64,000 nt of DNA. Origin: Kofleriaceae bacterium. Lineage in GTDB: Bacteria > Myxococcota_A > Polyangia > Haliangiales > Haliangiaceae. Position numbers and translations under genes: made by a program. The notes under the pieces were generated by a model. That model was not told the DNA's origin and did not search any database. It worked only from the letters and a program-made list of their open reading frames with translations. The stretch lies in the NCBI GenBank assembly GCA_051952595.1, contig JBQCJR010000598.1, positions 13,384 through 77,383 of the forward strand, in the 5' to 3' direction. Positions within the stretch are counted from its first letter, which is position 1. Every line of letters starts with the position of its first letter. This document shows, one piece after another, positions 1 to 47,552 of this stretch.

Positions 1-700
1 CGTTGGGGAGGGTTGGGATGGAACTGGGCGCCGCCCCCCACTGGCGGATCATGGCCATCGCGCGCGCATCGGGGGCCAGCATCGGCAGCCGGCGACGTGC
101 GACGACGAGCACCTGCTTGAAGGGCTCGAAGTACGGATCCGGAAAGCGGAAGCAGTGGAGGTCCTCGAAGTGCGTGGCCAGCGTCGCCGCACTGTGCTCG
201 AGCGCGTAGTACGGCACCAGGAACAGGAGGGCCCCGCCCACGGCGGTCGCAGGACCGAAGCGGCGCAGCCAGCGTTCCTCCAACCGCCCCATCTCGTGGT
301 CCGTGTCGTAGGGCGGGTTCAGCCACTGCACCGTGGCGCCGGCGCGAGCGCCATACTCCCCGCCCTCCCACTGGATCATGAAGGCGTCGCCCTTGAGGAG
401 CCGGCGCTTGCTGGTGTCCATGCTCGCCCAGAGCGCGCGCTCCAGCTTCTGTGCGCGCGTCTCCTCGAGTTCGGCGACGTACAGCCGGAAGTCGCCGGTG
501 ATGTGCTCGTTGGGAACGCGGCGGCCCATCCAGCGACGCACCATCTCCAGGATGGCCTCGCCCTCTCCGGCACAGGCGTCGAGGAAGGCGTGCTCGCCAT
601 CGCCCGTCCTGTCCACTTCCACGAGCGCCGCGATCGACGGCAGAAGCTCCGGCCACGTCGCGTAGAAACCGCCTACCTGAACCGATCCAAGCCTTGCCAC
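1..700 (-). CDS. N6-adenine DNA methyltransferase-like protein (NPPY type); N-terminal part only, ORF runs off left edge
   Basis: Not in the ORF track (no stop in window). Hand translation from GTG 700..698 (GGAGG 5 nt upstream) stays open to position 2. Contains FLDACAGEGEAILEM (SAM motif I-like) and VQWLNPPYDTD (motif IV). Confidence 0.75.
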   Translation of the reverse strand, partial: MARLGSVQVGGFYATWPELLPSIAALVEVDRTGDGEHAFLDACAGEGEAILEMVRRWMGRRVPNEHITGDFRLYVAELEETRAQKLERALWASMDTSKRRLLKGDAFMIQWEGGEYGARAGATVQWLNPPYDTDHEMGRLEERWLRRFGPATAVGGALLFLVPYYALEHSAATLATHFEDLHCFRFPDPYFEPFKQVLVVARRRLPMLAPDARAMAMIRQWGAAPSSIPTLPN

Positions 701-702
701 CG

Positions 703-1509
703 CTACCTCCGTGCCTTGTTGAAGATCTTCGTCTGCTCGGCCACCACCAGCGCGATCTCGTCGTGCTTCGCCATGAACGCTACGCCCGGCGCGAGCTTCA
801 CCCGGTCGGTCCCCCACTCGTAGAAGCCAAGCCGCGGGTGCTCCCCGAACGCGCAGCCCCGGTTCAGGTGCTGGTGCGCGCTGACGCTTGCGCAGCCGTG
901 GTGGAGCATCGCGACGAAGAGCCGCGCCTGGAACCGCATGTCGGGCAGGATCGGCAGATCGATGCGCCGAACCAGCGCGCCGCAGAACAGCGCCGCCAGC
1001 GCTGGAAAGACGACGCGCAGCGTCTCGCCCACGCGCACGTCCCACCCCATCTGTTCCCCGAACGCCTCGGCGTGTCGCAGCATCATCGCGCCCGGCAGCC
1101 GCGCGCTCTCCTGCTCGAGACGCGCCCGTGGCGGGAGGACCACGAACGAAGCGCCCCGCGGCTCGACAAGGCCCGGGTCGAAGACCAGCAGCTTTGGGAG
1201 GTGCGCGGTGATCACCGTGCCTGCCGCGAAGCGTTGGCTCCGGAAGATGTACCCGCCGGACTTGAGGATCTCGACGGGATCGCCCTTCGCGAGGCAGCCG
1301 TTCCCCAACATCTTCGCCTTGCAGCCGCTCTGCAGGTTCGCGAGGAACGGCTTCGCCTCCTGATCGCTGCAGGCCACCTGCAGGAAGACCGGGCGCAAGA
1401 CGTCGCCGCGCCCGCCTTCCCACAGAGCATCCGCGCGTGCGAACGCGAGCACGTGCGCGTTGAAGGCGCGCCCCTTCCCGCTCTCGCTCGCGATGGTGAG
1501 CGTCCTCAT
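703..1509 (-). CDS. hypothetical protein (268 aa)
   Basis: Track ORF with ATG 1509 and balanced composition. Its stop TAG 705..703 lies 2 nt before the GTG of the downstream methylase ORF. No motif recognised. Confidence 0.65.
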   Translation of the reverse strand: MRTLTIASESGKGRAFNAHVLAFARADALWEGGRGDVLRPVFLQVACSDQEAKPFLANLQSGCKAKMLGNGCLAKGDPVEILKSGGYIFRSQRFAAGTVITAHLPKLLVFDPGLVEPRGASFVVLPPRARLEQESARLPGAMMLRHAEAFGEQMGWDVRVGETLRVVFPALAALFCGALVRRIDLPILPDMRFQARLFVAMLHHGCASVSAHQHLNRGCAFGEHPRLGFYEWGTDRVKLAPGVAFMAKHDEIALVVAEQTKIFNKARR

Positions 1510-1583
1510 CTTCTCCGTCCTTTGCTGCGCGGCTTCAGCAGCCGCAACGACATGGTGCGCACGGCCCTCACAGTGTCAACCGC

Positions 1584-3195: not shown

Positions 3196-3249
3196 GGCGC
3201 GGCCTCGCGCCATCGCTTGGTCGTCCCGGTCCATGCGCGAGGCCGCGCC
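3196..3249 (-). terminator. Long perfect hairpin (15-bp stem, 24-nt loop) abutting the stop of 3249..4304
   Basis: GGCGCGGCCTCGCGC (3196..3210) is the exact reverse complement of GCGCGAGGCCGCGCC (3235..3249). No U-tract follows, so terminator function is uncertain. Confidence 0.4.
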
Positions 3250-4304
3250 TAGGACCCCTTCAACAGCTGGTCAAAGAGCCCGGGCTGCAGCGGTCTCTCT
3301 CGGGCCGGTCCAAGCAGCCCCGCTTCCTTGGCGCGGCGAAGGACGGTCCCCACGCCGAGGGCCATGACGACCGCGTTCTCGCGTGCGTCCGCCGCATCGT
3401 GTTCGCGCGCTCCGAACTGCGCTTGCAGCAGGGTCAACGCGCGCGGTTGACCGGCCGGGCCGTTGGTGCGGCCCACCATCGCCGGGATGGGGTTCGAGTC
3501 GCAGGAGATGGCCGCGCCGGGCGCGAGGCGGCGCACCACGTTCACCAACTCGTTGAACCTTGCCCCGCGAGGCCCGAGCCCGAGGAAGTGCACCGCCGGC
3601 GGGCGGATGGCTATCAGGTAGCGCTCGAGGTCATCCACCGGCATGGCGTCCTTGTTCGACGGGATCCCTCGGATGAAGTCGGCGAAGCCCAGCGCCCTGG
3701 CGGCTGCCCGATCGAACGCGGCCTGCGGCATCGCGCCGCGCTGGATCGGAACCACGATGCGAGCGCCGCGGCGACGGACCTCCATCATCACGTGCCGCCA
3801 GCGTCGCATTCTGCGCAGCGTCTCCGCCTGGTCGCCCACGCAGTCGGGCGCGACGGCGTAGATCTGGCGCGCAAGCTGGTCGCCCCAGTGAACCCGGCGA
3901 CGACGGCGGGAGGGGCCTCGGCGCAGGGTGCGGGCCCGCCGGTGACGCGCGAGTTCGAGGAGAAGCGCCATCCGCTCGCCCCAGCTTCGCTCATCGATCG
4001 GTCTGGCCACGACGATCCCGGCCTCGGTCTCCTCCACCTCGCCGAAGGCGCCCGTGTCGACGAAGATGGGCAGCGGAACCGCCCTCGGTTCGGCGCCGGG
4101 TCGCTCGATCAGCGGCATCGTCCACCCGGCCAGATCCTTCAGTGCACGAACGGACTGCGCGCCGAGTTCGGGCAGGCACACCCCTAGCGGATGGGCGACG
4201 CGGGCCAGCCCGCGGAGATCGCCGAGCGCGCTGGCGCCGCTGGCAAAGTAGATGATCCCCCAGAGCGGCTCTTGGCTTGCGGCGGGCCAGCGCAGGACCG
4301 TCAT
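3249..4304 (-). CDS. TGT-superfamily / DpdA-like putative DNA (7-deazaguanine) transglycosylase
   Basis: Track ORF trimmed to ATG 4304 (ATGA overlap with the upstream stop). Three motifs in TGT order: PIFVDTGAFGEV (cf. DSGGFQ), VHFLGLGPRG (cf. GxGxP), AISCDSNP (cf. FDCVxP). No Zn-site Cys cluster seen. Confidence 0.45.
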   Translation of the reverse strand: MTVLRWPAASQEPLWGIIYFASGASALGDLRGLARVAHPLGVCLPELGAQSVRALKDLAGWTMPLIERPGAEPRAVPLPIFVDTGAFGEVEETEAGIVVARPIDERSWGERMALLLELARHRRARTLRRGPSRRRRRVHWGDQLARQIYAVAPDCVGDQAETLRRMRRWRHVMMEVRRRGARIVVPIQRGAMPQAAFDRAAARALGFADFIRGIPSNKDAMPVDDLERYLIAIRPPAVHFLGLGPRGARFNELVNVVRRLAPGAAISCDSNPIPAMVGRTNGPAGQPRALTLLQAQFGAREHDAADARENAVVMALGVGTVLRRAKEAGLLGPARERPLQPGLFDQLLKGS

Positions 4305-4786: not shown

Positions 4787-5065
4787 TTACGTCTTCTCCG
4801 TCAGCTGCACGCCCGCCTCGCTCAGCTTCTCGAGCTTCGCCACCTGCTTCTTGAGCGCGGCGATCTTGGCACGGATCATCTGGTCCGCCTTGGCGCGCGC
4901 CACCTCTTCGGTGGGCCACCAGTCGTGGCGGCCGAAGATCCGCGTCCCGCCGGGCCACAACACGTGCGCGTACCCTCTGTCGGTGAAGTTGATCACCTTG
5001 CAGGCGATGATGCCTTCCGTGAGCGCGTACTTCGTCACGTAGACCTTCGTGGGCTTCTGGCTCAT
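4787..5065 (-). CDS. hypothetical protein (92 aa)
   Basis: Track ORF 4787..5230 trimmed to ATG 5065 (GGAGAAGGA upstream). Sequence: MSQKPTKVYVTKYALTEGIIACKV... with a coiled-coil tail. Confidence 0.65.
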   Translation of the reverse strand: MSQKPTKVYVTKYALTEGIIACKVINFTDRGYAHVLWPGGTRIFGRHDWWPTEEVARAKADQMIRAKIAALKKQVAKLEKLSEAGVQLTEKT

Positions 5066-5124
5066 GATCCTTCTCCGCGCTTCTGCTTTGATGTTGCAGG
5101 GGCTGCTCGCCCCGCTTCCGGTCA

Positions 5125-6061: not shown

Positions 6062-7633
6062 TCATGCAGCGCCTTGGATGTTGGCGCGTACCAGCGCCTC
6101 GGCCACCGGAGGGCAGACACTGTTGCCGGCCTTCGCGGTCTGCTCCGTCTTGGAGAGCGGCCGGCCATTGAACTCCGGCTCGATCTCGTAGTCGGCCGGA
6201 AACCCCTGGGCGGCGAACAGCTCGCGGGGCGTGAGCATCCGCATCCCGATGTCCACGATCTGCCAGGGCTCGCCGTGGAGCATCACCAGGCCGAACCGAT
6301 CGTGCGCGGTGACCGTGCCGAGAGGCAGCCCGAGCTGCTGCCCCTGCGGTCGGCCCGCGGAGCCGTAGTACTTGATCAGGAACGCGCGGACCTCGGCGAG
6401 GTGTCCGCCCCCTCGCCCTCCTCCGCTCGTGACCGTGGGCAGGGGGAGTTGCACCGCCGAGCCCGTGGAGGTCCCGTAGAACTTGGAGACGAACGCCGCG
6501 CAGAGCCCGTTGTGGTCCTTTGCAGTCACCGTGCCCAGCGGATGGCGCGCGTCCGCCCCTGGTGTCTGATGCCCCTGCGGGCCGCCGTAATGCTTCGCGA
6601 TGAAGGGCACCACCAGGTGCTTGTCATTCGTCGCGCACACCGTCGCGATGGGCGCGCGGAGGCTCTGCCCTCGGAACGTCCCCGCGCCGCAGCCGTCGCG
6701 GAGGCCGGCGCCCGTGATCGTCGAGTAGTGCCCGTGTCGGACCACGAAGGGCTCGACCAGCGCCAGCTCGCCGCGGTGCGCGCCGGTGACGGTCCGCACG
6801 GGCTCCTGGATGTCGTGGACCCTGGCGTCGCCGTGGTGGGTGACAGGGATGATGAACGGGTCGCCGTTCTCGACCACGTACCTCCGGATCCCGGTCGCGA
6901 TCCGGCGCAGCGTCGCCTCGGCGAGGGGCTTGCGCCGGCCGAAGATCGAGGGGCACGGGATCGTCCAGTCGATCACCTCCGCAGCCGGGCGCCACGCATG
7001 CGGGCGGCCCTTCCCGTGGGTGGGCTCCGGCCACACGATCGGCGCCCGGTCGATGCGGGCGATCAGGTAGAGCCGCTTCCGGGTGGTGGGGGTGCCGTAG
7101 TCCGCGGCGACCAGCGATCGGTGCTCGACCGTGTAGCCGCAGTCGACGAGCGCGGCGCGCCACGCGCGAAAGCTCTCCCCCTCCTGCGCCTTGATCGGGA
7201 ACCCTCGCTCGTCGAGCGGGCCCCACTTCAGCCACTCCTCGACGTTCTCCAGCAGGATGACCTTGGGTTTGACGGTGCGCGCCCAGCGCAGGATCGCGTC
7301 CGCGAGCACGCGCTTGCCCTGCGCGCGCGGCTTAGAGCCCTTGGCCCGACTGTGATCAGTGCAATCGGGACTGGCCCACAGTACGGCCACCGAACGCGAC
7401 CCGCACGCTTCGCGAGGATCCACGGCCCAGATATCCTCGATGAAGTGCCGCGTCTCCGGATGGTTGGCCTTGTGCATCGCGATCGCCGCCGGGTCATGGT
7501 TGATCGCGATGTCCACCGGCCGCCGCAGCGCGGCTTCGAGCCCGGTACTCGCGCCTCCTCCACCGGCGAAGAGATCGACGACCAGCTCGCCCGGGAAGGC
7601 GAAGGACGCCGTGATGACGGGCCGACGACTCAT
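6062..7633 (-). CDS. DNA (cytosine-5) methyltransferase
   Basis: Track ORF trimmed to ATG 7633 (ATGA overlap with the upstream stop). Motifs: VVDLFAGGGGAS (I), ASPDCTDHS (IV, catalytic Cys), ILLENV (VI), TPRELFAAQGFP (IX), GNSVCPPV (X). Confidence 0.9.
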   Translation of the reverse strand: MSRRPVITASFAFPGELVVDLFAGGGGASTGLEAALRRPVDIAINHDPAAIAMHKANHPETRHFIEDIWAVDPREACGSRSVAVLWASPDCTDHSRAKGSKPRAQGKRVLADAILRWARTVKPKVILLENVEEWLKWGPLDERGFPIKAQEGESFRAWRAALVDCGYTVEHRSLVAADYGTPTTRKRLYLIARIDRAPIVWPEPTHGKGRPHAWRPAAEVIDWTIPCPSIFGRRKPLAEATLRRIATGIRRYVVENGDPFIIPVTHHGDARVHDIQEPVRTVTGAHRGELALVEPFVVRHGHYSTITGAGLRDGCGAGTFRGQSLRAPIATVCATNDKHLVVPFIAKHYGGPQGHQTPGADARHPLGTVTAKDHNGLCAAFVSKFYGTSTGSAVQLPLPTVTSGGGRGGGHLAEVRAFLIKYYGSAGRPQGQQLGLPLGTVTAHDRFGLVMLHGEPWQIVDIGMRMLTPRELFAAQGFPADYEIEPEFNGRPLSKTEQTAKAGNSVCPPVAEALVRANIQGAA

Positions 7634-8253: not shown

Positions 8254-8282
8254 ATGCCTCGTGTTGGTCCGAAGGTGAACGC

Positions 8283-13179: not shown

Positions 13180-13242
13180 GTCGACCTCAGCGGCCGACAC
13201 AGAAGAGTCTACGCAGCGCTCTAACGCTCGTCAACGTTAGAG
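13180..13242 (-). promoter_or_regulatory. Promoter/operator/5'-hairpin module B
   Basis: All elements are read on the minus strand:
- Promoter: TTGACG (13234..13229), 17-nt spacer, TAGACT (13211..13206).
- Operator-like perfect inverted repeat: CTCTAACG (13219..13226) / CGTTAGAG (13235..13242).
- Leader hairpin: GTCGGCC-GCTGA-GGTCGAC (13198..13180).
The module overlaps the last codons of 13221..13910. Confidence 0.6.
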
Positions 13243-13910
13243 CCGACCCGTTCTGTCGATTTCTGGGGCGGACCCCGAAACGCGATGGCCACCTCCCCGG
13301 GCTCGCACTTGGCAAGCGTCATGCCGGACGCCCGCAGGTGGTCCGCACACGCCGCACAGTGCTGCGTGGACGTTGGCCAGCCGCAAGCGCAGCGCCGGAT
13401 AGGAGGTGGCTCCGGCTCCGTAGCCGTTGGGTGGAGCTCTCCCCCGTCGATAGCGCCCAAGGCGGGGAGGATGACCGACCGGAGAAGTCCCCTGTGACAG
13501 TGCTCGGGGTTGGTGCAAAAGCACACGAGCACCACCCGTGGGCGCCGGAGGAGCCTGAGCCACGCCTGACGGTGCTGCACCCACGAGGCGCGCATCTCGC
13601 GGACGAAAGCGGGCTGGTACGCCTCCCACGCGGCGGCCTCGATGTCCTCGGCCTGACGCTGGTAGACGAAGGGGTCGAAGGTGGGGATGTCGCTGGCGCC
13701 TTCGGCCTCGAGGAGGCGCTTGCACTCGGCCATCACCGCGTCGGCGCGCCGGCGGGCCTTCAGCGCCGGGCTGAGAACGGCCCACGACGGCGCGAACGGC
13801 GCACCAGGCGACTCCTCCCCGCGCGCGAGTTGCTTGTCGGCTGTGGCCCGAGTGATGTCGAAGCGGTCGGGGCCCGGGTAGGTGAGGCGCGCGGAGTAGA
13901 CCAGGGTCAT
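13221..13910 (-). CDS. hypothetical protein, possibly DUF488-like
   Basis: Track ORF of 229 aa with ATGA overlap at 13910. The segment VVLVCFCTNPEHCHRGLL resembles the C-terminal CHR motif of DUF488. Confidence 0.6.
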   Translation of the reverse strand: MTLVYSARLTYPGPDRFDITRATADKQLARGEESPGAPFAPSWAVLSPALKARRRADAVMAECKRLLEAEGASDIPTFDPFVYQRQAEDIEAAAWEAYQPAFVREMRASWVQHRQAWLRLLRRPRVVLVCFCTNPEHCHRGLLRSVILPALGAIDGGELHPTATEPEPPPIRRCACGWPTSTQHCAACADHLRASGMTLAKCEPGEVAIAFRGPPQKSTERVGSNVDER

Positions 13911-29949: not shown

Positions 29950-31197
29950 ATGAGCCATCACGCCGCCAGCACCATCGACTTCTTGGCCGCGCCGTCGATC
30001 ACCGCTGAGCCGCCGGGCCTGGCGCATGGGCTGGTGGCGCCCTTCCCCTACTTCGGCGGCAAGAGACGCGCGGCCGCGCTCGTCTGGGAACGCTTCGGCG
30101 ACGTCACCAACTACTGCGAGCCGTTCGCCGGCAGCCTCGCCGTGCTGCTGGCGCGCCCAACGCATCACCGTGCCCGCGTGGAGACCGTCAACGACATGGA
30201 CGGGCTCATCGTCAACGTGTGGCGCGCGATCGCCGCGGACCCGGAGGCGGTGGCGCGCGGATGCGACTGGCCCGTGCTGGAGCTCGACCTTCACGCCAGG
30301 CACCGCGCGCTCATCGCCGCACGCGCCGACCTTGCAAAGAAGCTCGATGCTGACCCTCGGTGGCATGACCCAGAGCTTGCGGCGTGGTGGGTCTGGGGCG
30401 CGTCGTGCTGGATCGGCGCAGGCTGGTGCGACGATCATCATCGGAACGCACGAGGGCGTCAGCGGCCGGCGCTCAGCGGCGGGCAGGAGAGTCCAAAGGC
30501 GGGCACCGGCGTGCATGCCGGCACGCAACGCGAGCCGACGCGAAAGCTGCCGATCCTGATCGGCGGAAACAGCGGGCCGAGCCCGCAATACGGCAAGGGC
30601 GTCCGCGCAAGCACGCAGAGGGAGACGAGCCCGGTCCCAGAGCGCCGGCAGCTCCCAGCCATCGGCGGTTCTTTCACCGCGTCGCGCGACGACGCGGCCT
30701 ACGCGAACTACGGCAAGGGCGTGCACAGCGCCACGGTCCGCACCGCGCTGTACGACACGTTCGAGCGCTTGGCCGCCAGGCTGCGCTACGTGCGCGTCAC
30801 CTGCGGGGACTGGGCGAGGATCTGCACGCCTGCCGTGACATGGAAGCACGGACTCACGGGCGTGCTGCTTGATCCGCCCTACAGCGACCCGGCCCGCACC
30901 GCCAAGCTCTACGCGCGCGACTCGATGACCGTGGCCACCGACGTCCGGGCGTGGGCTCTGAACGCGGGGCAGCGCGAGGACATGCGGATCGCGCTCTGCG
31001 GCTACGAGGGAGAGCACGACGAGCTTCTCTCGGCCGGCTGGAGCGTCGTCGCTTGGAAGGCACATGGCGGATACGGCGTGCAGGCAGATGGCGCAGGCCG
31101 GGAGAACGCGGCCCGCGAGCGCATCTGGTTCTCCCCTCACTGCCTGAGCGGCCATGAGGATGCTCCGCGGCAGCGCGCGCTGTTCAGCGGCTTCTGA
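29950..31197 (+). CDS. Dam-class (D12) N6-adenine DNA methyltransferase with a large internal insertion
   Basis: Track ORF trimmed to ATG 29950 (GGAGG upstream). Motifs: PFPYFGGKRRAA, EPFAGSLAV, VLLDPPY. A roughly 130-aa insert carries three GKGV-type repeats. Confidence 0.8.
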   Translation: MSHHAASTIDFLAAPSITAEPPGLAHGLVAPFPYFGGKRRAAALVWERFGDVTNYCEPFAGSLAVLLARPTHHRARVETVNDMDGLIVNVWRAIAADPEAVARGCDWPVLELDLHARHRALIAARADLAKKLDADPRWHDPELAAWWVWGASCWIGAGWCDDHHRNARGRQRPALSGGQESPKAGTGVHAGTQREPTRKLPILIGGNSGPSPQYGKGVRASTQRETSPVPERRQLPAIGGSFTASRDDAAYANYGKGVHSATVRTALYDTFERLAARLRYVRVTCGDWARICTPAVTWKHGLTGVLLDPPYSDPARTAKLYARDSMTVATDVRAWALNAGQREDMRIALCGYEGEHDELLSAGWSVVAWKAHGGYGVQADGAGRENAARERIWFSPHCLSGHEDAPRQRALFSGF

Positions 31198-31282: not shown

Positions 31283-32143
31283 TTGGAAACCACGGTCGAG
31301 CAGCGATGGCGTGATCGCGTCGGCGTGTACCGCTCCGTTCGGGAGTTCTTCGACCCGCGCGCGTACGAGGCCGACGAGATCCTCGACGACACGCCGGCGA
31401 AGGCGTTCGTCAACGCCCACCACTACTCCGGGACGTACCCGGCGGCCATGCGCCGCTTCGGGTTGTTCGAGCGGTACAGCAGGCGCTTGGTGGGTGTCGC
31501 CGTCTTCTCCTACCCCGTCAACGACGCGGTGTTCTCATGGCTGCCCGGTGAGAAGGACCAGAGCCTGGAGCTCGGCAGGCTGGTGCTGCTCGACGAGGTG
31601 CTGGCGAACGCGGAGACGTGGTTCATCGCACGCTGCTTCGATGTGCTCGTCTCCCACGGCGTGACCGGCGTAGTGAGCTTCGCTGACCCGGAGAAGCGCG
31701 TGGACGCCGACGGGCGGGTCGTGATGCCCGGACACATCAAGACCACCTACCAAGCCAAGGGCGCGGTGTACGCTGGGCGTGGGACGCCTCGAACGCTGCG
31801 ATTGCTGCCCGATGGCACCGTGCTCAACGATCGGGCGAAGCAGAAGATCCGCGGCCGTGAGCGCGGGCACGAGCACGTCGAAGAACGGCTCATCCGCTCT
31901 GGTAGAGCGCAGGGCATCGCCATCCCCGAACTGCGCGCCACGGCGAGCCGGGAGGAAGCTCGGCGCTGGCTCGCCACGTGGGCCCCGCTGTTGACGCGGC
32001 GGCAGCGACATCCGGGCAACCATCGCTACCTGTTCGGGCTGACGAAGGAAGCGCGCCGGCGCATCCCGCAGATGCTCGATGGCTGCGGGGTCCCACGGCT
32101 GCCCTACCCGAAGTTCACCTACGCTGGCGTCGTGTTTCGATGA
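31283..32143 (+). CDS. Mom-like (GNAT-fold) putative DNA-modification acyltransferase
   Basis: TTG 31283 with GGAGG 8 nt upstream. The pattern AKAFVNAHHYSGTYP...FGLF...LVGVAVFSYP...LELGRLVLLD...VVSFADP...GHIKTTYQAKGAVYAG matches the HHY / ELxRL / SxAD / GHxGxxYQA pattern as I recall it for the Mom family. Confidence 0.5.
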   Translation: METTVEQRWRDRVGVYRSVREFFDPRAYEADEILDDTPAKAFVNAHHYSGTYPAAMRRFGLFERYSRRLVGVAVFSYPVNDAVFSWLPGEKDQSLELGRLVLLDEVLANAETWFIARCFDVLVSHGVTGVVSFADPEKRVDADGRVVMPGHIKTTYQAKGAVYAGRGTPRTLRLLPDGTVLNDRAKQKIRGRERGHEHVEERLIRSGRAQGIAIPELRATASREEARRWLATWAPLLTRRQRHPGNHRYLFGLTKEARRRIPQMLDGCGVPRLPYPKFTYAGVVFR

Positions 32144-32245: not shown

Positions 32246-32841
32246 GCGTGACGAAGGAGCAGAGGGAGCGGTGGGCGGCGCTGGCGAAGCGGGTTGATGC
32301 CGCACGCGCACGGCTTGCGCTGGCCGCAGCGAACGCAAGGCTCACACGAGCCTTCGACAGCGCCATGCGGGTCTTGCGCGTTATCGACGAGCGGCCGATC
32401 GCGTGCGGACACAGGGTCAAGGACCTAATCAGCGGCACGGACCCGTCGACGGGCCGCAAGCTGGTGACGAAGTGCGGGGCATGCCTCGCTGAGCAGCCGA
32501 AGATGTCGCACGCTGGCCCGTCGCCTGCGCCAGAGCAAGAGCGGCTCGCTGCGCTGAGCGAGCGGCAGACCCAACGGCTCGGGCGGATGCTGGCCCAGGT
32601 CAGCAGGCAGCGGGACGCGCTCGCGGTGGCGCTCGGCAACATGCTCGCGATCTGCGACGGCGAGTTCGCCGTGGCTGGCGGTGCGCTGGAGGACCTCGAG
32701 CCCGAGGACCAGGCGGCCGTCCACGCCGCGCGGCAGATCCATGAGGCCCACAAGGCTGGCACACTGGGCGCGCTGCTCGACCGCTGGGACGCCGAGGAGA
32801 AGCAGGAGGCCACGGCCGCTGCCCGGCAGGCAGCGTCATGA
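32242..32841 (+). CDS. hypothetical protein (199 aa)
   Basis: Track ORF 31978..32841 trimmed to ATG 32242. Coiled-coil-like, with a CGH...CGAC pair. Confidence 0.6.
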   Translation: MSVTKEQRERWAALAKRVDAARARLALAAANARLTRAFDSAMRVLRVIDERPIACGHRVKDLISGTDPSTGRKLVTKCGACLAEQPKMSHAGPSPAPEQERLAALSERQTQRLGRMLAQVSRQRDALAVALGNMLAICDGEFAVAGGALEDLEPEDQAAVHAARQIHEAHKAGTLGALLDRWDAEEKQEATAAARQAAS

Positions 32842-33590
32842 AGCACCAACCCTACATCGGCGTGAGCGGCTTCATGACGCGCGCGGAGGTGCAGGCCGCG
32901 CTCGGCGCCTTCCCCGACTGCGGCCGCAAGCTCATGGTCGGCGTGCTGGTCTCGGCCAAGACGCTGCGGGGCGAGACGAACAGCTACCCCAGGCGCTACC
33001 CGCGTCCGGAGGACATCGCCGGGATCTTCGTGGACGACCCGCGCTGCCTGAACATGGTCCACTTCGCGAGCGACGAGCCGCCTGACGTCGAGACGCTGAT
33101 CCGCCTCGTCGATGTCGGTGGGCCATGCTGCCACGGGGTTCAGTTCAACGTGTCGTGGCCCCGTCCGGACAGCATTCTGGCGATGCGGACCGCCTGCTAC
33201 GCCGGCAAGCGCGAGCCGCGGCTCGTGTTCCAGGTGAACGATCTCACTCGCCCCGTGCGTGCCTGGCGGGCCATCGCGGAGCGGTACAACGGTGTCGTCA
33301 CCGACGTCCTGCTGGACGGGTCCTGGGGGCGCGGCGTGACGCTCAAGCCATGGGTGGTCGCCGCGGCGGCAGCGGCTGTCCGCGCCGGATGGCGTGGCGT
33401 TGGTCTCGGCGTCGCTGGCGGACTGTGCGCCGAAGCGCTTCCGTCGGTCGCCCGCCTGCTGAGAGACGGCGTGTCCATCGACGCGGAGGGGCGCCTGCGC
33501 GATGACGCGCCGGGCGGCGGCAACCTCGACCTCGGCAAGGTGCGCGCGTACCTGCAGGCTGCCGGAGCGCTGCTCCAGGAGGGCGCATGA
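32838..33590 (+). CDS. TrpF (phosphoribosylanthranilate isomerase)-like TIM-barrel protein
   Basis: ATGA overlap at 32838. By-eye alignment to TrpF: YIGVSGF (cf. KICGIT), HGVQFN (cf. VQLHG), VLLDGSWGRG (cf. LLDxxxGGSG), GVAGGL...VSIDAEGRLRDDAPGGGNLDLGKVRAYL (cf. SGGL...VDVSSGVE..PG.KD..KI..F). Confidence 0.5.
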   Translation: MKHQPYIGVSGFMTRAEVQAALGAFPDCGRKLMVGVLVSAKTLRGETNSYPRRYPRPEDIAGIFVDDPRCLNMVHFASDEPPDVETLIRLVDVGGPCCHGVQFNVSWPRPDSILAMRTACYAGKREPRLVFQVNDLTRPVRAWRAIAERYNGVVTDVLLDGSWGRGVTLKPWVVAAAAAAVRAGWRGVGLGVAGGLCAEALPSVARLLRDGVSIDAEGRLRDDAPGGGNLDLGKVRAYLQAAGALLQEGA

Positions 33591-34279: not shown

Positions 34280-34720
34280 ATGGAGATGTCGAAGCAGCAC
34301 CCCTGCGATGGGTGCGTGACGTGCGCCTGCGCGGCCGAGCCCAAGGTGGACGAGGACGGGCTCTGCCTCGCCTGTGGTGGGACGCCCGTCATCATCGCGG
34401 AGCAGGTGAGCGTGGAGGAGCCCCACGTCGGCTCAGATGCAGAGGGCGAGGACGTCACCCGCATCGTCAAGATGCTGCTGCAGCGCAATCCGGGGCGCGG
34501 GAAGGTGCGGCAGAAGCTCGCGACGACGTTGGGGCTCCCCCCCGAGGACGCGACCGCCGTGCACATCGCGCGGGCGCTGCTCGCCGACCTCAACCCGGAC
34601 GAGCAGGGCGGTGCCGCGTCGTTCCTGCAGCTGATCACCTACGTCTGCCGGAGCCTCGCCGACGCCGCCTCCGAGCGCGGGAACAACGCCACCACCGCAC
34701 GGCCGGACGGGCACCCGTGA
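34280..34720 (+). CDS. Cys-rich hypothetical protein (146 aa)
   Basis: Track ORF with AAGGAGG upstream. N-terminal CDGCVTCAC...CLACGG. Confidence 0.6.
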   Translation: MEMSKQHPCDGCVTCACAAEPKVDEDGLCLACGGTPVIIAEQVSVEEPHVGSDAEGEDVTRIVKMLLQRNPGRGKVRQKLATTLGLPPEDATAVHIARALLADLNPDEQGGAASFLQLITYVCRSLADAASERGNNATTARPDGHP

Positions 34721-35634
34721 CCGCGGTGGCGCATCCGGGCGAGCCCCGGCCGCCGCTGAAGTGGGTGGGTGGTAAGGGAGAGTTCCTGGACCGCCACGCC
34801 GGACTGTTGCCCAGCCCCGACGAGGTGACCGGCTACCGCGAGGTCTTCTGCGGCGGCGGAGCGGTGTTCTTCCGGCGCTTCAGCGGCGTGCGGCCGGCGC
34901 GGCTCAGCGACACGAACGCGCTGCTCATCGACACCTACACGGCCGTGCGCGATCATGCGGAGGAGCTTCTCAAGGCGCTCGAGCGTGAGCAGCCCTTCTA
35001 CGGACGGGACGCCTTCTTGGAGCGACGCGCGTCGCTGCGCCACCCCAAGCGGCTCTCGCTCGTGCAGCGCGCCGTGGCTGTCTTCGTCATCAACAAGTGG
35101 GGCTACAACGGGCTATGGCGCGTGAACGCCGCCGGCGGCGTCAACGTGCCCTTCGGGCGCCCCTCCGGGAAGGAGCCACCACGCCTCTACGACCCGGAGA
35201 ACATCCGAGCGTGTTCCGCCGCGCTCCAGGGCGTCGAGCTGCGATGCTGCGACTTCGAGGAGGCGCTCGCCGACGTGGCGCCCGGGGAGTTCGTCTACAT
35301 GGACCCGCCCTACGCGCCCGTCTCCCCCACGGCGAGCTTTACGAGCTACACCGCGGAGGGGTTCAGCTACGGGACCACCCCCCAAAGCGCGCTTTTCGAG
35401 AGCGAGCGTCGCGAGACCGATCAAGAGCGGCTCCAGCGCGTGTTGCTCCACGTCGACGCCCGTGGCGCGCTGTTCGCTCTCTCGAACAGCAACGCGCGGG
35501 TGCTCGCGCCGCTGCGGGCTGCATGGAAGGCGAAGACGCTCCTGTCCAGCCGCTCCATCAACTGCGATGGCAACGGCCGTGGCGCGGTGACCGAGGTGCT
35601 CCTGCGGAACTACACGAGGACCCGCCGCACATGA
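34717..35634 (+). CDS. dam: Dam-class (D12) N6-adenine DNA methyltransferase
   Basis: GTG 34717 forms a GTGA overlap with the upstream stop. Motifs: PLKWVGGKGEF, EVFCGGGAVFF, VYMDPPYAP. Confidence 0.85.
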   Translation: MTAVAHPGEPRPPLKWVGGKGEFLDRHAGLLPSPDEVTGYREVFCGGGAVFFRRFSGVRPARLSDTNALLIDTYTAVRDHAEELLKALEREQPFYGRDAFLERRASLRHPKRLSLVQRAVAVFVINKWGYNGLWRVNAAGGVNVPFGRPSGKEPPRLYDPENIRACSAALQGVELRCCDFEEALADVAPGEFVYMDPPYAPVSPTASFTSYTAEGFSYGTTPQSALFESERRETDQERLQRVLLHVDARGALFALSNSNARVLAPLRAAWKAKTLLSSRSINCDGNGRGAVTEVLLRNYTRTRRT

Positions 35635-36863: not shown

Positions 36864-37502
36864 ATGGCCGCCGATTCCGAGCTGCGCTTCAACGACGTCG
36901 ACTTCTTCCAAGAGGACCTCAAGAACCCGCGCACGCGGACGGAGGACGACGTGATCGCCTTCGCCAAGGCCATCGCTGAGTTCGGCTTCCGCATCCCCCT
37001 CCTCGCGCTGAGCAGCGGCGCGCTCAAGGACGGGCACTTCCGCGTCCAGACGGTGCGCTGGATGCGTGAGCACATGCCTGACGCCTACCGGGCGAAGGGG
37101 CTCGATCGCCTCATGTGGCTGTGCGTCGACGATCTGAGCGAGGCCCAGATCCTGGCGCTCTCCGTCTCGGTGAACCGGCAGGCTGAGCGGAGCCGATGGC
37201 ATACCGACCTTCTCGGGGAGCGCCTCGAGCTCATCGACGCGGCCGGCATCGTTCCCCTCGGCGAAGAGGGGCCGATCGGGTTCGGGCTGGGCGATGTGTC
37301 AGAGCGCGACACCGAGGAGGAGAAGGGGTGGGACCTCGACGCGCGCACCGAGGACGTCGCGCAGATATCGGTCCGCGTTCGCGTCCCACGGAGCTTCGAC
37401 GTGCGGCGCGCGGTCGAAGAGGCGCTCGCCGGGCACGACGTCGAGAAGGTGGAAGTCTCCGTGATCCAGCGCAGTGCCCGAGGCGTCGAGGACCTCGCGT
37501 GA
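36864..37502 (+). CDS. ParB-like nuclease-domain protein
   Basis: Track ORF trimmed to ATG 36864. Motif: NPRTRTEDDVIAFAKAIAEFGFRIPLLAL...LKDGHFRVQTV. Confidence 0.65.
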   Translation: MAADSELRFNDVDFFQEDLKNPRTRTEDDVIAFAKAIAEFGFRIPLLALSSGALKDGHFRVQTVRWMREHMPDAYRAKGLDRLMWLCVDDLSEAQILALSVSVNRQAERSRWHTDLLGERLELIDAAGIVPLGEEGPIGFGLGDVSERDTEEEKGWDLDARTEDVAQISVRVRVPRSFDVRRAVEEALAGHDVEKVEVSVIQRSARGVEDLA

Positions 37503-38179
37503 GCGCCAAGCGGAAGCGCATCGCTGGTCTCGGCGACGGTCGCACGCGCGAGAGCCACACGAACACAGCGCTCTCCACCAAGGTGGACCTGCGCCACTGG
37601 TTACTCGAGCAACTCGCCGCACGCGGTGTCGCCGCCCCACGGATCCTCGACTGCTTCTGCGCCGGCGGCCAGATGTGGGCGCGCGCCTACGGAAGGCCAG
37701 CGCAGGATCGCTACTTGGGCATCGACCTGGATCTGTACCGGGACGAGCGCCGCACCATCGTCGCCGACAGCGCGCGCTTCCTTCGCGACGTCGAGTTCCG
37801 GGCGGGCGAGTGGGACGTCTACGACCTCGACGCCTTCGGCACCCCGTTCGAGCACTTGGCGGTGCTCGGCCGCCGCCTCGGCGAGGCCGAGATCGACCCC
37901 GGCCGCGCCTTCGGCTTCGTGCTGACGGACGGCACCGGGTTCGCCTCGAGGATGAGCAACATGAGCCGCGGCCTGCTGCGCTATGTCGGGGTCGCGCAGC
38001 ACGCCTGCACGTCCTTTCAGCAAGACAACCGGATCGCCATCGAGCAGATGGCTATCCGTCGCGCGATGACGGAGGCCGGGCTCGACGTCGTTGAACACCG
38101 GGTCATGGCCCACAAAGGGCGTCGACCCTCAGCGGAAATGCGGTATATCGCACTTGTCGCACTCAAGCGGCCCGGTTGA
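37499..38179 (+). CDS. SAM-dependent methyltransferase-like protein (ParB-linked)
   Basis: GTG 37499 forms a GTGA overlap. Motifs: ILDCFCAGGQMW (motif I-like) and VYDLDAFGTP (cf. the D-x-D-P-F-G of TRM1-type enzymes). Confidence 0.55.
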   Translation: MSAKRKRIAGLGDGRTRESHTNTALSTKVDLRHWLLEQLAARGVAAPRILDCFCAGGQMWARAYGRPAQDRYLGIDLDLYRDERRTIVADSARFLRDVEFRAGEWDVYDLDAFGTPFEHLAVLGRRLGEAEIDPGRAFGFVLTDGTGFASRMSNMSRGLLRYVGVAQHACTSFQQDNRIAIEQMAIRRAMTEAGLDVVEHRVMAHKGRRPSAEMRYIALVALKRPG

Positions 38180-40579: not shown

Positions 40580-40838
40580 GCGCCGCGGTCCGACGTGGCG
40601 TGTCGCCAGTTGGCGTGTGCAGGCGCGAAACCGCGGCGAACACGCTGCAGGAAATCCACTCCGCGTCGCCTTACGTCATCTCCACAACCCCCCGGTCGCG
40701 GTGCATGCTCGGGCCATCCTCGGACGTGGACCGGGTGACGCGCCCTCAGCCGTTGCGCAAGACGCGGCGCCGGTCCCCGCGCTCCCGTCCGAGGAGTCTT
40801 CTTCCCTCTCCGCGCGCTGGCGCGGCAGGAGCTGCACC

Positions 40839-41165: not shown

Positions 41166-41215
41166 GAGCCACGGCGCCTCCAGCCGGCGGAAGTATGACC
41201 GGTCCGCGGGACCCG

Positions 41216-41372
41216 CCGACCACGGCCGGCGACCAGCCGGACCATGGCGATCAGTCCGACCAGTCCGACCATCAACAGGACGAGAAACCCTTCGTTCGCC
41301 GCTGTTTCTGACACGGCTGAGAAGGGCAGATTCTCGGCCCTATCCGACCAGGGGTCCGACCATGACCGACCA
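41216..41372 (+). repeat. Cluster of same-orientation (T)CCGACCA repeats flanking a lower-GC segment; candidate integrase arm sites / attP
   Basis: TCCGACCA at 41255, 41264, 41343 and 41355. CCGACCA at 41216 and 41366. Degenerate copies GCGACCA at 41229 and CGGACCA at 41238. Inverted repeat AGAAAC (41283..41288) / GTTTCT (41304..41309) lies between the two groups. The int ATG (41362) lies inside the last group. Confidence 0.6.
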
Positions 41373-42897
41373 TGCCAAAAAGCCAGCGAATCCGGAGAGA
41401 TCCGCGGCCGGCTCGAAGGCGTGGGCGACTAGGCGCGCCCGGGCCGCTGCGGCGGCCTCGCCCGCCGAGATCTCAACGTCGACCATCAAGGCCGAGATCG
41501 CCCCGCCGCAGGCCGCGGCCAGCGCCCCCGCCGCCCCTCCGGCGCGGCTCGAGCAGACGGACCCATTCGGGGTGGCCGCCCTCCCGGGCGGTGTCCCGGT
41601 GGTGATCGACCTCGCCGATCCCGAGGCGCTGGCGCGGGCTGCCCAGATCGCAGCGAAGCTGGCTCAGGGTGGGATGGCCGGCCAGGGGCACCTGCAGTCG
41701 CTCCTCGCCAAGAGCGGGGCGCCGCTCGCGCCTGGACAGATCAGCGCCTTCCCGCCGCGGCCTGGCGCGCTCGGCGGCGACCTCCCCCCGCTCCTGCCTG
41801 TCGAGCAGGTCGACCTGGAGCAGATCACCTTCCTCGCGGCGCCAGCGCCGGCCACGATCCAGATCGGACGGCATCCGGTGCCTGCGCCTGCCCCCGTGGT
41901 CGCGCCCCGGCCAGGGCCCCGCGCCGTGGCAGCGCCGCATGGGCGCGCGGCGCTCGCCAAGGCGCCCAGCCTCACCGAGCTCAACGTCGACGCCGCCGCC
42001 TTCGCCGAGGCCGGGACCTCGCCGGCGACTCGCCGCGCCTACCACGTCGAGTGGGTCAAGTTCCACGCGTGGTGCGATCGCCACGGGCGCCGGCTCCTCC
42101 CCACCGAGCCCGCCGACCTCGCGCGCTACATCACCGAGCTGGCCAAGAACGGCTCGGCTGTCGCCACGATCGAGAAGTCCCTCGCGGCGATCAGCCGGGC
42201 CAACACGATGCAGGGGTACCCGTCGCCCCGACACGACCCGATCGTGCGCGACGTGCGCCGCGGCATCCGCCGCGAGATGGGGCGCCCCGCCCGGCAGAAG
42301 GCCCCCATCCGCGTGGCTGCCCTGCGGATGATGGTCGCCACCTTCAAGCCGGACACCCTCGACGGCCTGCGCAACAGGGCCATCCTCCTGGTGGGGTGGG
42401 CCGGCGCGATGCGCCGCAGCGAGATCGTGGGCATCACCATCGCCCAGATCGAGTGGCAGGAGGAGGGGGTGGTGATCACCCTCGGCCGCTCGAAGACTGA
42501 CCAGGAGGGCAAGGGGCAGATCGTCGCCATCGCGCGCGGGAAGCGCCCCGAGACTTGCCCGGTGCGCGCGCTCCAGCTCTGGATCGCCGCGGCCAAGATC
42601 ATGAGCGGCCCCGTCTTCCGAGCGCTCGGGCGCAGCAACGTCGTCAGCGCCGAGGCGATCGGGCCCCGCGAGGTCGCCCGCATCGTGAAGCTCGCCGCGG
42701 CCCGCGCCGGGCTCGACCCCAAGGCGGTCGCCGGGCACTCGCTCCGGTCGGGCCACGCCACCGAGGCATCTCGGCAAGGGCGGAGCGACAAGGACATCCA
42801 GGCGCAGCTCCGGCACGCGAAGATGGAGACCACCCAGCGCTACATCCGGCGCGCGAAGGCCATCGACACCACCACGTCGAAGGGCATCGGCCTCTGA
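41362..42897 (+). CDS. int: tyrosine recombinase / phage integrase with long N-terminal extension
   Basis: Track ORF 40459..42897 trimmed to ATG 41362. Catalytic-domain motifs: GAMRRSEI, HSLRSGHAT, LRHAKMETTQRY. Confidence 0.85.
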   Translation: MTDHAKKPANPERSAAGSKAWATRRARAAAAASPAEISTSTIKAEIAPPQAAASAPAAPPARLEQTDPFGVAALPGGVPVVIDLADPEALARAAQIAAKLAQGGMAGQGHLQSLLAKSGAPLAPGQISAFPPRPGALGGDLPPLLPVEQVDLEQITFLAAPAPATIQIGRHPVPAPAPVVAPRPGPRAVAAPHGRAALAKAPSLTELNVDAAAFAEAGTSPATRRAYHVEWVKFHAWCDRHGRRLLPTEPADLARYITELAKNGSAVATIEKSLAAISRANTMQGYPSPRHDPIVRDVRRGIRREMGRPARQKAPIRVAALRMMVATFKPDTLDGLRNRAILLVGWAGAMRRSEIVGITIAQIEWQEEGVVITLGRSKTDQEGKGQIVAIARGKRPETCPVRALQLWIAAAKIMSGPVFRALGRSNVVSAEAIGPREVARIVKLAAARAGLDPKAVAGHSLRSGHATEASRQGRSDKDIQAQLRHAKMETTQRYIRRAKAIDTTTSKGIGL

Positions 42898-45296: not shown

Positions 45297-45298
45297 CT

Positions 45299-46010: not shown

Positions 46011-46157
46011 GCCGTCGACGGTCGGTGCCGGATCCGCGCCTACAAGCGTGTCGCTCCCCGCGATGATCTCGTCGCGGCCGCCGCAGTCCTTACAGGGGAC
46101 TTCGCGTCCGCCACGCCCTTCGCCACGACCGTCACAGCGACGGCACGTGCTCCACAC
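45984..46157 (-). CDS. small DnaJ-type zinc-finger protein (57 aa), not in ORF track
   Basis: Hand translation from GTG 46157: VWSTCRRCDGRGEGRGGREVPCKDCGGRDEII...RQKI*. It has two CxxCxGxG-type motifs. Its 3' end carries the promoter at 45983..46010. Confidence 0.45.
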   Translation of the reverse strand: MWSTCRRCDGRGEGRGGREVPCKDCGGRDEIIAGSDTLVGADPAPTVDGLTTIRQKI

Positions 46158-46195
46158 CCAACCGCCTTCGTTCCTCGTGAGAGGCAGCGTAGCCG

Positions 46196-46738
46196 GTGAA
46201 CGCCGACAAGGACGACATGATGACCAGGTGCTCGTGGATGCTGCGCCAGCGACATGGATCCAGCGCGTACCAGTTCCGCACCTGGCACGCGGAGAACCTC
46301 GTCGTGGGCACGGTGCTGCTCGGTGTCCTCTGGGCGACCGGCGGCGGCGTGGCGGATGTTATCGCTGCCGCTGCCGTCTTCGCTGGCTTCTGCCACGCCT
46401 CCATCGCTGAGCGCCTCCGGGAGCGTGAGGCTGCGCGCCCCGTGCCCGCCGTCGAGTGCCACCGGATGCAGGAGGTCTTCTGGATCCTGAAGGAACTCGG
46501 CTGGCTGGCGTTCTTCGTGCTCACCCATGCCTGGCCCGCGCTGGCCGGCTGCCTCCTCTTCCTCCTCTACCCCGCGTGGCGCCGCTTCTGGCGCCGGCGG
46601 CCCCCCCTCGCCGAGGTCCCCCATGCCGAGGTCTCCTGCGCCGTGTGCGGTCAGCGCGTCGAAGGCCAAGCGATCGTCGTCGCCGCGCTCGTCCACCAAA
46701 GGCTCTGCTGGCGCCGGCGCGGTCTTCTCCGCGGCTGA
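46196..46738 (+). CDS. membrane protein with C-terminal Cys pairs (start 46196 GTG or 46217 ATG)
   Basis: Track ORF with hydrophobic spans VVGTVLLGVLWATGGGVADVIAAAAVFAGF and LGWLAFFVLTHAWPALAGCLLFLLY, then CAVCG...C. Confidence 0.6.
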   Translation: MNADKDDMMTRCSWMLRQRHGSSAYQFRTWHAENLVVGTVLLGVLWATGGGVADVIAAAAVFAGFCHASIAERLREREAARPVPAVECHRMQEVFWILKELGWLAFFVLTHAWPALAGCLLFLLYPAWRRFWRRRPPLAEVPHAEVSCAVCGQRVEGQAIVVAALVHQRLCWRRRGLLRG

Positions 46739-47552
46739 CGTCGAGATCTACGGGGGCGACAACCTCGTCGGCATGTGGAGCCTGGCCCGCGCAGGGCGTC
46801 GGTTCCGCCTGATCTACCTCGACCCGCCCTTCCACACCGGCCGGAGGTTCTGCACCGCCGCCGGCGAGCTCGCCTTCGACGATCGCTGGCCGAGCCTCGA
46901 CTCGTACGTCGCCTGGATCCGCTGCAGGCTGGTCGCCGCCCGTGAGCTGCTCGAGCGCGACGGCAGCTTGGTGGTCCACGTTGACCCCAGCGTCTCCCAC
47001 CACGTGCGCATCGTCCTCGACGAGGTGTTCGGGCGCGAGTCCTTCGCCAGCGAGATCGTCTGGCGCTACCGGCGCTGGCCCACGAAGGGGACCAACTTCC
47101 AGAAGGTCCACGACGTGCTCCTCCGGTACGTGCGTGACCCGAAGGTCGCCCCCTGCTGGAACCAACTCCACGAGCCGCTCGCTCCAAGCACCGTGAGGAC
47201 GTGGGGCGATCGTCGGCAGGAGGCGGTGCTCGACGCCTGCGGCAAGCGGCGGCGCTCCGCGAGGAGCGAGGCCCGGTCGCCTGGCGCCCTCCTCGGGGAC
47301 GTCTGGGAGATCCCGATCGTCGCGCCGGTGGCCAAGGAGCGCACCGGCTACCCCACGCAGAAGCCGGAGAAGCTCCTCGCGCGCCTCATCGAGGCGTGCA
47401 CCAACGCCGGCGACTCCGTGCTCGACCCTTGCTGCGGCAGCGGCACCACCCTGGCAGCAGCCCGGGCGTTGGGCCGGCGCGCGGTGGGCATCGACGAGAG
47501 CCCTGTCGCGCTGCGCGTCGCGCGCGCTCGGCTCAAGGGCAGAGCGACATGA
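46623..47552 (+). CDS. beta-class N4/N6 DNA methyltransferase (PF01555-like); start uncertain
   Basis: Motif IV LIYLDPPFHTG precedes motif I SVLDPCCGSGTTLAAA. The only in-frame starts are ATG 46623 (116-nt overlap with the upstream ORF) or ATG 46773. Confidence 0.8.
   Translation: MPRSPAPCAVSASKAKRSSSPRSSTKGSAGAGAVFSAADVEIYGGDNLVGMWSLARAGRRFRLIYLDPPFHTGRRFCTAAGELAFDDRWPSLDSYVAWIRCRLVAARELLERDGSLVVHVDPSVSHHVRIVLDEVFGRESFASEIVWRYRRWPTKGTNFQKVHDVLLRYVRDPKVAPCWNQLHEPLAPSTVRTWGDRRQEAVLDACGKRRRSARSEARSPGALLGDVWEIPIVAPVAKERTGYPTQKPEKLLARLIEACTNAGDSVLDPCCGSGTTLAAARALGRRAVGIDESPVALRVARARLKGRAT

Follow-up and report, generated by a model that had tools for sequence, protein, structure and literature searches.

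The DNA analysed here (the window) is the 64,000-nt stretch between bases 13384 and 77383 of contig C598, which by its gene content belongs to a temperate tailed phage and which encodes a set of enzymes predicted to modify DNA. The original prediction for this stretch had proposed six methyltransferase-like genes, accompanied by Mom-like, tRNA-guanine transglycosylase (TGT)-like and other candidate modification genes. Using third-position GC (GC3) to pick the reading frames, 86 genes were called in the window, which has a G+C content of 70%, and many of them are chained through 4- or 8-nt overlaps. All the genes named in the original prediction were present at its coordinates and in high-GC3 frames. 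Five of the methylases and the Mom gene were recognised by Pfam, whereas the ParB-linked, TGT-like, TrpF-like and radical S-adenosylmethionine (SAM) genes proved to be weaker cases. The principal features are the following, in which AF2 stands for AlphaFold2.

2..700, minus strand: DUF6094 (NPPY, gamma-like) methyltransferase domain (PF19587, E 3e-11, 43 bits against a 22.8-bit cut-off)
3249..4304, minus strand: TGT-like TIM-barrel protein of an unannotated phage family (AF2, Foldseek, hhalign)
6062..7633, minus strand: C5 cytosine DNA methyltransferase (PF00145, E 6e-30, 105 bits against a 22-bit cut-off)
29950..31197, plus strand: D12-class (Dam-like) adenine DNA methyltransferase with a long internal insert (PF02086, E 2e-6)
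31283..32143, plus strand: Mom-family GNAT, predicted tRNA-dependent adenine N6 modifier (PF25680, E 8e-22)
34717..35634, plus strand: D12-class (Dam-like) adenine DNA methyltransferase (PF02086, E 4e-34, model positions 1-209 of 253)
36864..37502, plus strand: ParB N-terminal (CTPase-fold) domain protein (phrog_620, phrog_498 and phrog_15396, E ~1e-12)
37499..38179, plus strand: predicted class-I SAM methyltransferase-fold protein with a Trm1-like DLDAFGTP motif (AF2 and Foldseek)
46623..47552, plus strand: beta-class N4-cytosine / N6-adenine DNA methyltransferase (PF01555, E 9e-42, model positions 2-219 of 221)

Classification with hidden Markov models (HMMs) placed four of the six methylase-like genes (the C5, the two D12 and the beta-class genes) in dedicated DNA-methylase Pfam families and one in DUF6094, leaving one without a family match. 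The C5 gene displays motifs I (DLFAGGGG), IV (SPDCTDHS), VI (ENV) and X (GNSV), in agreement with the motifs first read from its translation, and its motif IV is of the P-D-C and not of the P-C form. The D12 gene at 34717..35634 carries GGK, FCGGG and DPPY, which together with its PF02086 match confirms the Dam-class assignment. For the second Dam-class gene, at 29950..31197, the Pfam match is limited to the N-terminal model positions 1-69 (27.9 bits, cut-off 22 bits), as the protein is split by a long low-complexity insert. This protein also matches phrog_56 and, below the cut-off of that model, TIGR00571; it keeps GGK, EPFAGS and DPPY (the last read by eye) and has full-length homologues in Mycobacterium prophages that are annotated as DNA adenine methylases (41% identity, 90% coverage, E 2e-52), features that favour its Dam-class assignment. 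The beta-class gene, which adjoins the lysogeny region, shows the expected order of DPPF ahead of DPCCGSG, and its class is confirmed by the PF01555 match.

The NPPY methylase that had been noticed at 1..700 is covered by PF19587 over model positions 222-331 of 344 only, and both DACAGEG and NPPY are present. The segment corresponds to the first 233 amino acids of a 1291-amino-acid methylase plus ResIII/DEAD helicase (C598 10208-14083), which extends past the window start and has a full-length homologue, 41% identical, in a 485-kb uncultured phage. The DUF6094 family is itself uncharacterised, and we infer that this protein acts on DNA. Assigned by family, the methylase chemistries comprise 5-methylcytosine, N6-methyladenine, and N4-methylcytosine or N6-methyladenine, to which the Mom modification is added. 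A recent origin of the phage methylases as copies of host genes was ruled out, since nothing else in the bin matches them at more than 31-37% identity.

The Mom-like acyltransferase predicted at 31283..32143 was confirmed by a match that runs end to end through the Pfam model (positions 8-202 of 202; 78 bits, cut-off 27 bits). Relatives recovered by tblastn carry the annotation 'Mom-like DNA modification protein', and a single-sequence PDB search with the protein returned nothing. In phage Mu, Mom transfers glycine from Gly-tRNA to the N6 of adenine, with R111, S124 and R151 being essential and H58, Y59, D149 and Y159 also belonging to the set of key residues (PMC13219725). When aligned with Mu Mom and its HGTV-1 homologue, the window protein retains H58, Y59, R111, D149 and Y159. 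Since two random picks among more than 8,000 Mom homologues in metaviromes were active (PMC13219725), the window Mom is a plausible active member of the family, and not a novelty. A second C5 and Mom pair (37% and 45% identity, ~280 bp apart) is found in the same bin at C70:3462-6597 and would mark a further prophage or else a momylation locus of the host.

The ParB_N gene at 36864..37502 overlaps the next gene by 4 nt and is translationally coupled to it; in three of the three contigs examined (C598, L047 and L048), the gene directly upstream of the methylase-fold gene encodes ParB_N. For the downstream protein, neither Pfam, NCBIfam nor PHROG gave a match, and a single-sequence PDB search returned nothing. 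Its AF2 model has a predicted local distance difference test score (pLDDT) of 76 and was matched by Foldseek to class-I SAM methyltransferases (E ~1e-5), the best structural matches being small-molecule and tRNA methylases. LDCFCAxG and DLDAFGxP...TDG are invariant among the six homologues found, and in a profile search these motifs align weakly to DLDPFGSP...TDG of the tRNA methylase Trm1 (2dul, E ~1). The methylase-like gene proposed at 37499..38179 is favoured by the modelled fold and the ParB_N pairing but lacks a family match, and we describe it, with weak support, as a predicted SAM methyltransferase-fold protein. Fusions of a ParB fold with a methylase are a known and common phage architecture (bioRxiv 10.1101/2025.10.10.680097).

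C598 has a length of 87,993 bp and is the longest among the 1,089 contigs of an 8.3-Mb bin with 71% GC and 94% completeness. Beyond the window it encodes a large terminase, a Mu-type portal (E 4e-66) and an S78 prohead protease, and within the window RecT, a DUF2800 nuclease, a 5'-3' exonuclease, DnaB with a loader-like ATPase, and a tyrosine integrase. An HTH_17 gene (excisionase-like, weak) lies directly upstream of the integrase, the two genes occupying window positions 40218-42897 on the plus strand. Judged by these genes, the element is a tailed phage with a genome of at least 88 kb, temperate because of the tyrosine integrase, and the window would represent the early, replication and lysogeny part of that genome. 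A circular or terminally redundant C598 was ruled out, its ends being without overlap, and no host flanking genes are visible across its 88 kb. When 24 kb were compared by megablast with GenBank phages and PLSDB plasmids, no relatives were recovered, and the portal shares no more than 29% identity with the portals of GenBank phages. The integrase and a tRNA cluster are located as follows.

41362..42897, plus strand: tyrosine integrase (PF00589, E 7e-15; PF02899)
52805-53198, plus strand: cluster of tRNA-Met(CAT), tRNA-Leu(CAA) and tRNA-Pro(TGG) (ARAGORN)

Elsewhere in the window, a PolB-type 3'-5' exonuclease gene (5130-5711, minus strand) is matched by PF10108 (E 8e-13) over model positions 9-135 of 213 only. 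Past 'RRIGWPG' its translation is Arg/Pro-rich and non-coding-looking, and the GC3 signal moves to another frame (4787-5128); a frameshift, a truncation or an assembly error may be involved.

The genes around each methylase were scanned for a nuclease partner. Among ten flanking proteins, Pfam, PHROGs and PADLOC revealed no endonuclease beside any methylase, and within the reach of these libraries the earlier statement that no endonuclease partner could be recognised holds. One or more of the methylases could instead be half of a phage-borne restriction-modification or exclusion system that attacks host DNA or that of competing phages, the nuclease being an unannotated neighbour. Open reading frames that would suit this role are tightly linked to two of the methylases, with 7630-8310 overlapping the C5 start by 4 nt and 34280-34720 overlapping the D12 gene at 34717-35634; moreover, HMM detection often misses restriction nucleases, and in jumbo phages Mom domains are reported to be fused to nucleases of the restriction endonuclease fold (PMC7824862). 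However, the ten flanking proteins gave no match of any kind in the three libraries, the window Mom gene is without a nuclease domain, and the same methylases occur in related contigs without those neighbours. We consider such an attacking system, whose role would go beyond protection of the phage's own DNA, very unlikely. The GC-rich 4-mer palindromes are undepleted in C598, with observed/expected ratios of 0.87 for GATC, 0.94 for GGCC, 1.09 for CCGG and 1.10 for GCGC, and CGCG behaves likewise; this fits protection by modification and not by site loss.

The location of some of these genes raises a second alternative, namely that the methylases mainly serve phage physiology through the timing of replication or packaging, the control of expression (as Dam does on mom in Mu) or the epigenetic reprogramming of the lysogen. 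A D12 gene lies directly upstream of Mom (29950-32143), D12 and Mom are close again in contig L014, and the beta-class methylase adjoins the integrase/immunity region, the usual site of prophage-expressed genes. Nevertheless, six enzymes with three chemistries are more than any known regulatory need, and Mom together with the polyvalent context of the TGT-like domain (see below) points to conflict with host defences (PMC13219725). A mainly physiological role appears improbable to us, and it would in any case be compatible with protection of the phage DNA.

The phage setting, the DNA-methylase families, the Mom gene and the lack of a recognised nuclease all favour the orphan anti-restriction or epigenetic role suggested in the original prediction, a role that rests on gene content and is not a new idea. 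With a probability of roughly three in four, the stand-alone DNA-modifying enzymes would mark the phage DNA against host restriction and form an orphan, multi-chemistry anti-restriction kit; layered DNA hypermodification may likewise be read from the gene content. The kit recurs, combinations of Mom, C5, D12 and TGT-like genes being found in contigs L014, L016 and L007 and a C5-Mom pair in C70. According to this model, the modifiers would be produced alongside the replication and recombination genes that surround them and would act on new phage DNA at differing motifs, each countering a different class of host restriction. The 1291-amino-acid methylase-helicase may work in a DarB-like manner on incoming DNA, and the prophage may express the beta-class methylase located next to the integrase.

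Several observations weigh against protection by an orphan kit. Given their diversity, restriction endonucleases cannot be excluded with HMM libraries, and several methylase-flanking genes are unannotated, among them 38935-40221 and the gene at 7630-8310, whose translation is coupled to that of the C5 gene. For the DUF6094 and ParB-linked proteins, the methylated target could be something other than DNA. In the window Mom, S124 is replaced by Thr and R151 is unaligned, as is likewise the case for both residues in HGTV-1, and therefore its activity is not assured. Finally, some 6-mers are strongly avoided in C598: ACGCGT is observed 2 times against 36 expected (observed/expected 0.06, compared with 1.11 in the host), and AGGCCT (0.19), ACCGGT (0.23) and TTCGAA (0.10) are depleted as well, none of them being avoided in the rest of the bin. 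This strong avoidance implies that modification is not the sole strategy of the phage. It suggests that host specificities at these 6-mers are countered by site loss and not by methylation, so that the phage would seem to rely both on modification and on the selective avoidance of sites.

The TGT-like gene was not recovered by sequence searches. No match for it was obtained in Pfam (E up to 0.01), in NCBIfam or in a single-sequence PDB search, nor with a profile of 37 homologues against PDB chains, and a genome-wide PF01702 search missed it while giving scores of ~480 bits to two genuine tgt genes of the host bin. The AF2 model of the protein is a confident TIM barrel (pLDDT 91). Foldseek against the PDB returned bacterial TGTs among the top matches (E 4e-5), interleaved with equally good sugar-epimerase barrels (TM-score ~0.4). 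In BFVD, the best match was a domain of an 877-amino-acid ART-PolyVal-like phage protein (30% identity, root mean square deviation 2.6 Å, E 1e-16) and the second an Arthrobacter phage 'queuine tRNA-ribosyltransferase' (E 1e-5).

Comparison of the TGT-like family profile with 30 bacterial TGTs by hhalign gave an E-value of 0.01, against 0.3-0.5 for two control profiles, and paired VFVDSGAF with ILTDSGGFQ and PIQxG with GIVQGG. With three TGTs (E 0.01-0.02), the alignment lengthens through HLLGxG / YLMGVG and SCD / FDC. Because these alignments pair them, the residues invariant in the family (D83, D154, Q188, G242, G244 and D269) are collinear with the TGT active-site set, the motifs DSGAF, PD, PIQxG, HLLGxG and (C/L)DS following the order of TGT D102, D156, Q203, G230 and D280, with weak statistics. 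As for the zinc site (CxCxxC...H), no Cys cluster was found in the protein and none among the invariant columns of the family. The TGT-like label is supported by the confident barrel and the weak TGT similarity, but it has to be reconciled with the failure of PF01702 and the missing zinc site, and the DpdA label is weakened in that the sequence model failed and 7-deazaguanine genes do not accompany 3249-4304. On balance, the gene probably belongs to the TGT superfamily; that its product performs base exchange on DNA is less probable than this membership.

The family is large, with ~1,175 representative clusters (50% identity, E up to 1e-3), and had no tblastn match among 50,697 GenBank phage records. 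FolE, QueD, QueE and QueC were found neither in nine homologue neighbourhoods nor in the scanned open reading frames of C598; QueC is encoded elsewhere in the host bin. Since 76 phages encode DpdA alone and may use host preQ0 (PMC6884629), and since the bin has QueC, a divergent DpdA with host-supplied preQ0 is possible.

The neighbourhoods of the homologues are rich in DNA-modification genes. In contig L014 a single overlapping operon holds a D12 gene, two small unknown genes, a Mom gene (49% identical to that of the window), an 810-amino-acid C5 gene and the TGT-like gene. Contig L016 encodes a C5 methylase (36%), the TGT-like protein, a PAPS reductase, an integrase and Mom (42%), and L007 encodes DUF5131, the TGT-like protein, C5, D12 and DnaB, while in L004 and L010 a DUF488-N3a gene lies directly beside the TGT-like gene. 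Many members of the family are internal domains of polyvalent-type proteins of 900-2,400 amino acids (P0208, P0234, P0261, P0264, P0317 and others), and in the injected polyvalent proteins P0261 and P0317 the TGT-like domain shares one polypeptide with a C5 methylase domain that aligns with the C5 protein of the window. By this operon linkage and domain fusion, the TGT-like barrel is tied to the predicted DNA-modification guild, whatever its reaction, and it most likely belongs to this guild, with an action on a base or a glycosidic bond in nucleic acid. A more specific proposal, that the family comprises phage base-exchange or glycosyl-bond enzymes which are distinct from DpdA and install or process a DNA modification without deazaguanine synthesis genes, is tentative and in our estimation rather unlikely; if true, the phage DNA would bear a modification chemistry so far undescribed.

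Other fusions were also noted among the family members. In P0264 the TGT-like domain is joined to a GNAT domain with weak similarity to Mom (12 bits). Motifs read by eye would suggest a PP-loop in P0234 and, in P0212, a class-I methylase; as for the PP-loop being PAPS-reductase-like, phmmer with the IbrA-like protein of C598 (see below) gave no match to P0234.

The remaining modification candidates of the window are the following.

13221..13910, minus strand: DUF488-N3a protein (PF22751, E 4e-11)
26811..27923, plus strand: candidate radical-SAM protein (SplB / PA0069 / Rv2578c type) that opens a three-gene cassette (CDFSCTYC; PF04055, E 9e-6)
27916..28824, plus strand: middle cassette gene (phrog_7674, E 2e-24; 8-nt overlap with each neighbour)
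28817..29791, plus strand: DUF5131 (phage Gp37/Gp68), third cassette gene (PF07505, E 1.5e-42; phrog_2045, E 7e-49)
32838..33590, plus strand: TrpF-like phosphate-binding barrel candidate (profile of 30 homologues against the PDB; PRAI 4aaj, E 0.01)

In the first protein of the cassette, C45, C49 and C52 form the CxxxCxxC motif. With 26.4 bits, its PF04055 match does not reach the cut-off of 29.5 bits, a partial NCBIfam match to rSAM_PA0069 (E 5e-12) is far under the cut-off, and phrog_13321 is matched as well, so that a radical-SAM identity is weak but plausible. An IMG/VR related-locus search with the middle cassette protein found nothing. The radical-SAM cassette of the original prediction is thus sustained as regards its CxxxCxxC motif and its solid DUF5131 member, but the radical-SAM model stays under its cut-off and the link to DNA modification is positional only.

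The TrpF-like gene is the middle one of a three-gene block (32197-34198, plus strand). It has no Pfam match and no single-sequence PDB match, and none of its more than 316 homologues carries a Pfam annotation. The match of its profile to PRAI 4aaj covers 73 positions in the phosphate-binding region, which gives marginal support to the barrel that had been proposed, but its link to DNA modification is again one of position only. That this barrel is a second TGT-like copy was rejected (hhalign E 0.3). A 77.7-kb ENA phage contig, L008, begins with the same block (36%, 72% and 69% identity) and has no Mom or D12 nearby. Homologues of the TrpF-like gene also sit in Sorangium genomes, a hint that this phage group may have myxobacterial hosts.

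As for the DUF488-N3a gene, the adjoining positions in two unrelated phage contigs (L004 and L010) suggest that it forms a functional pair with the TGT-like gene. A literature search on DUF488 function turned up nothing useful, and single-sequence PDB searches with the DUF488 protein and with a DUF1643 protein were empty. The latter (15444-16478, minus strand) shares the recombination arm with DUF488-N3a. Upstream of the window on C598 (L001:6373-8252), a PAPS-reductase/DUF3440 protein (IbrA-like, E 1.5e-37) is encoded beside a weak ParB_N (IbrB-like) protein, and the two are another candidate nucleic-acid-modification pair on the same phage.

The uneven strength of these assignments bears on a third alternative, in which the ParB-linked, DUF6094, TGT-like, TrpF-like and radical-SAM proteins act on RNA, nucleotides or small molecules and the DNA-directed set is reduced to four methylases and Mom. 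The structural relatives of the ParB-linked protein among small-molecule and tRNA methylases are in line with this idea, as are the classical action of TGT enzymes on tRNA, the contrast between the PF01702 scores of the two host tgt genes and the failure of that model on the TGT-like protein, and the weak TrpF-like and radical-SAM calls. On the other hand, the TGT-like gene recurs in the company of DNA methylases and Mom and is joined to C5 DNA methylase domains, a ParB fold combined with a methylase is an architecture of phage DNA methylases (bioRxiv 10.1101/2025.10.10.680097), and DNA is the substrate of SplB-type radical-SAM enzymes. We regard this narrower set as possible, though not likely.

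Published gene counts serve as a comparison for the proposed anti-restriction kit. A methylase of any kind is encoded by 34% of 8,848 surveyed gut phages, and in 72% of those it is the only one (PMC10477858); because of these figures, five to six methylases in one genome are far out in the tail. The description of the arsenal as unusually dense is fair when set against the average phage (PMC10477858), but precedents are known. Cellulophaga phage phi18:1 carries four DNA methylases in 39.2 kb (PMC11946311), and the Pseudomonas jumbo phage vB_PaeM_PA5oct has five Mom enzymes and a deazaguanine system, a multiplicity said to help overcome several restriction systems (PMC7824862). The stacking of modifications is therefore a phage strategy that has already been described (PMC7824862, PMC11946311), to which C598 adds an instance and not a principle.

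Phages that stack DNA modifications are a natural source of new nucleic-acid chemistry, of nuclease-protection tools and of host-range prediction, and C598 provides a clean, gene-dense example of such an arsenal from an uncultured high-GC phage lineage. The TGT-like family is the more valuable result of the analysis, being large, unannotated and linked to Mom and C5 methylases, with a possible new DNA modification or anti-defence activity. Its recurrent company of Mom, C5 and D12 genes makes it a new lead and the part worth experimental follow-up.

Compared with individual systems, the C598 phage resembles PA5oct in that several unrelated DNA modifiers, including a Mom-family GNAT and a TGT-superfamily gene (a weak call here), occur in one phage and are read as cover against several host restriction systems. 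Unlike PA5oct, it is a temperate phage of ~88 kb and 70% GC, not a jumbo phage; it has one Mom and five or six methylases, no 7-deazaguanine synthesis genes were found in the C598 scans, and its TGT-like protein is not a recognisable DpdA. Phage DpdA and the TGT-like protein have in common the TIM barrel, the collinear TGT motifs and the location in a phage replication module. They differ in that the latter has no PF01702 match, no Zn-binding Cys/His cluster and no tblastn match in the GenBank phage records, and that its family occurs also as a domain of giant polyvalent proteins. With phi18:1 the C598 phage shares several stand-alone methylases spread through the replication module without an endonuclease partner, to which it adds chemistry other than methylation, through Mom and possibly through the TGT-like and radical-SAM proteins, as well as the giant methylase-helicase protein.

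For single proteins, the window Mom is like Mu Mom in covering the whole Pfam Mom model and conserving five of the listed residues; it differs in being ~30% identical, with a 13-amino-acid insertion following the SFAD motif and an extended C-terminal part, and a Dam-class gene sits directly upstream of it. The ParB-linked pair is similar to phage fusions of the ParB-CTPase fold with a methyltransferase (phrog_498), a ParB N-terminal domain being followed by a SAM-methylase fold in a phage, but in all three contigs it consists of two separate overlapping genes, and the methylase part, with its Trm1-like DLDAFG motif, gives no match to either N6_N4_Mtase or Methyltransf_23. Lastly, the combination of an N6-adenine-type methylase with a superfamily-2 helicase in one large phage protein is, from general knowledge and by domain make-up alone, like the DarB-type antirestriction proteins of phage P1.

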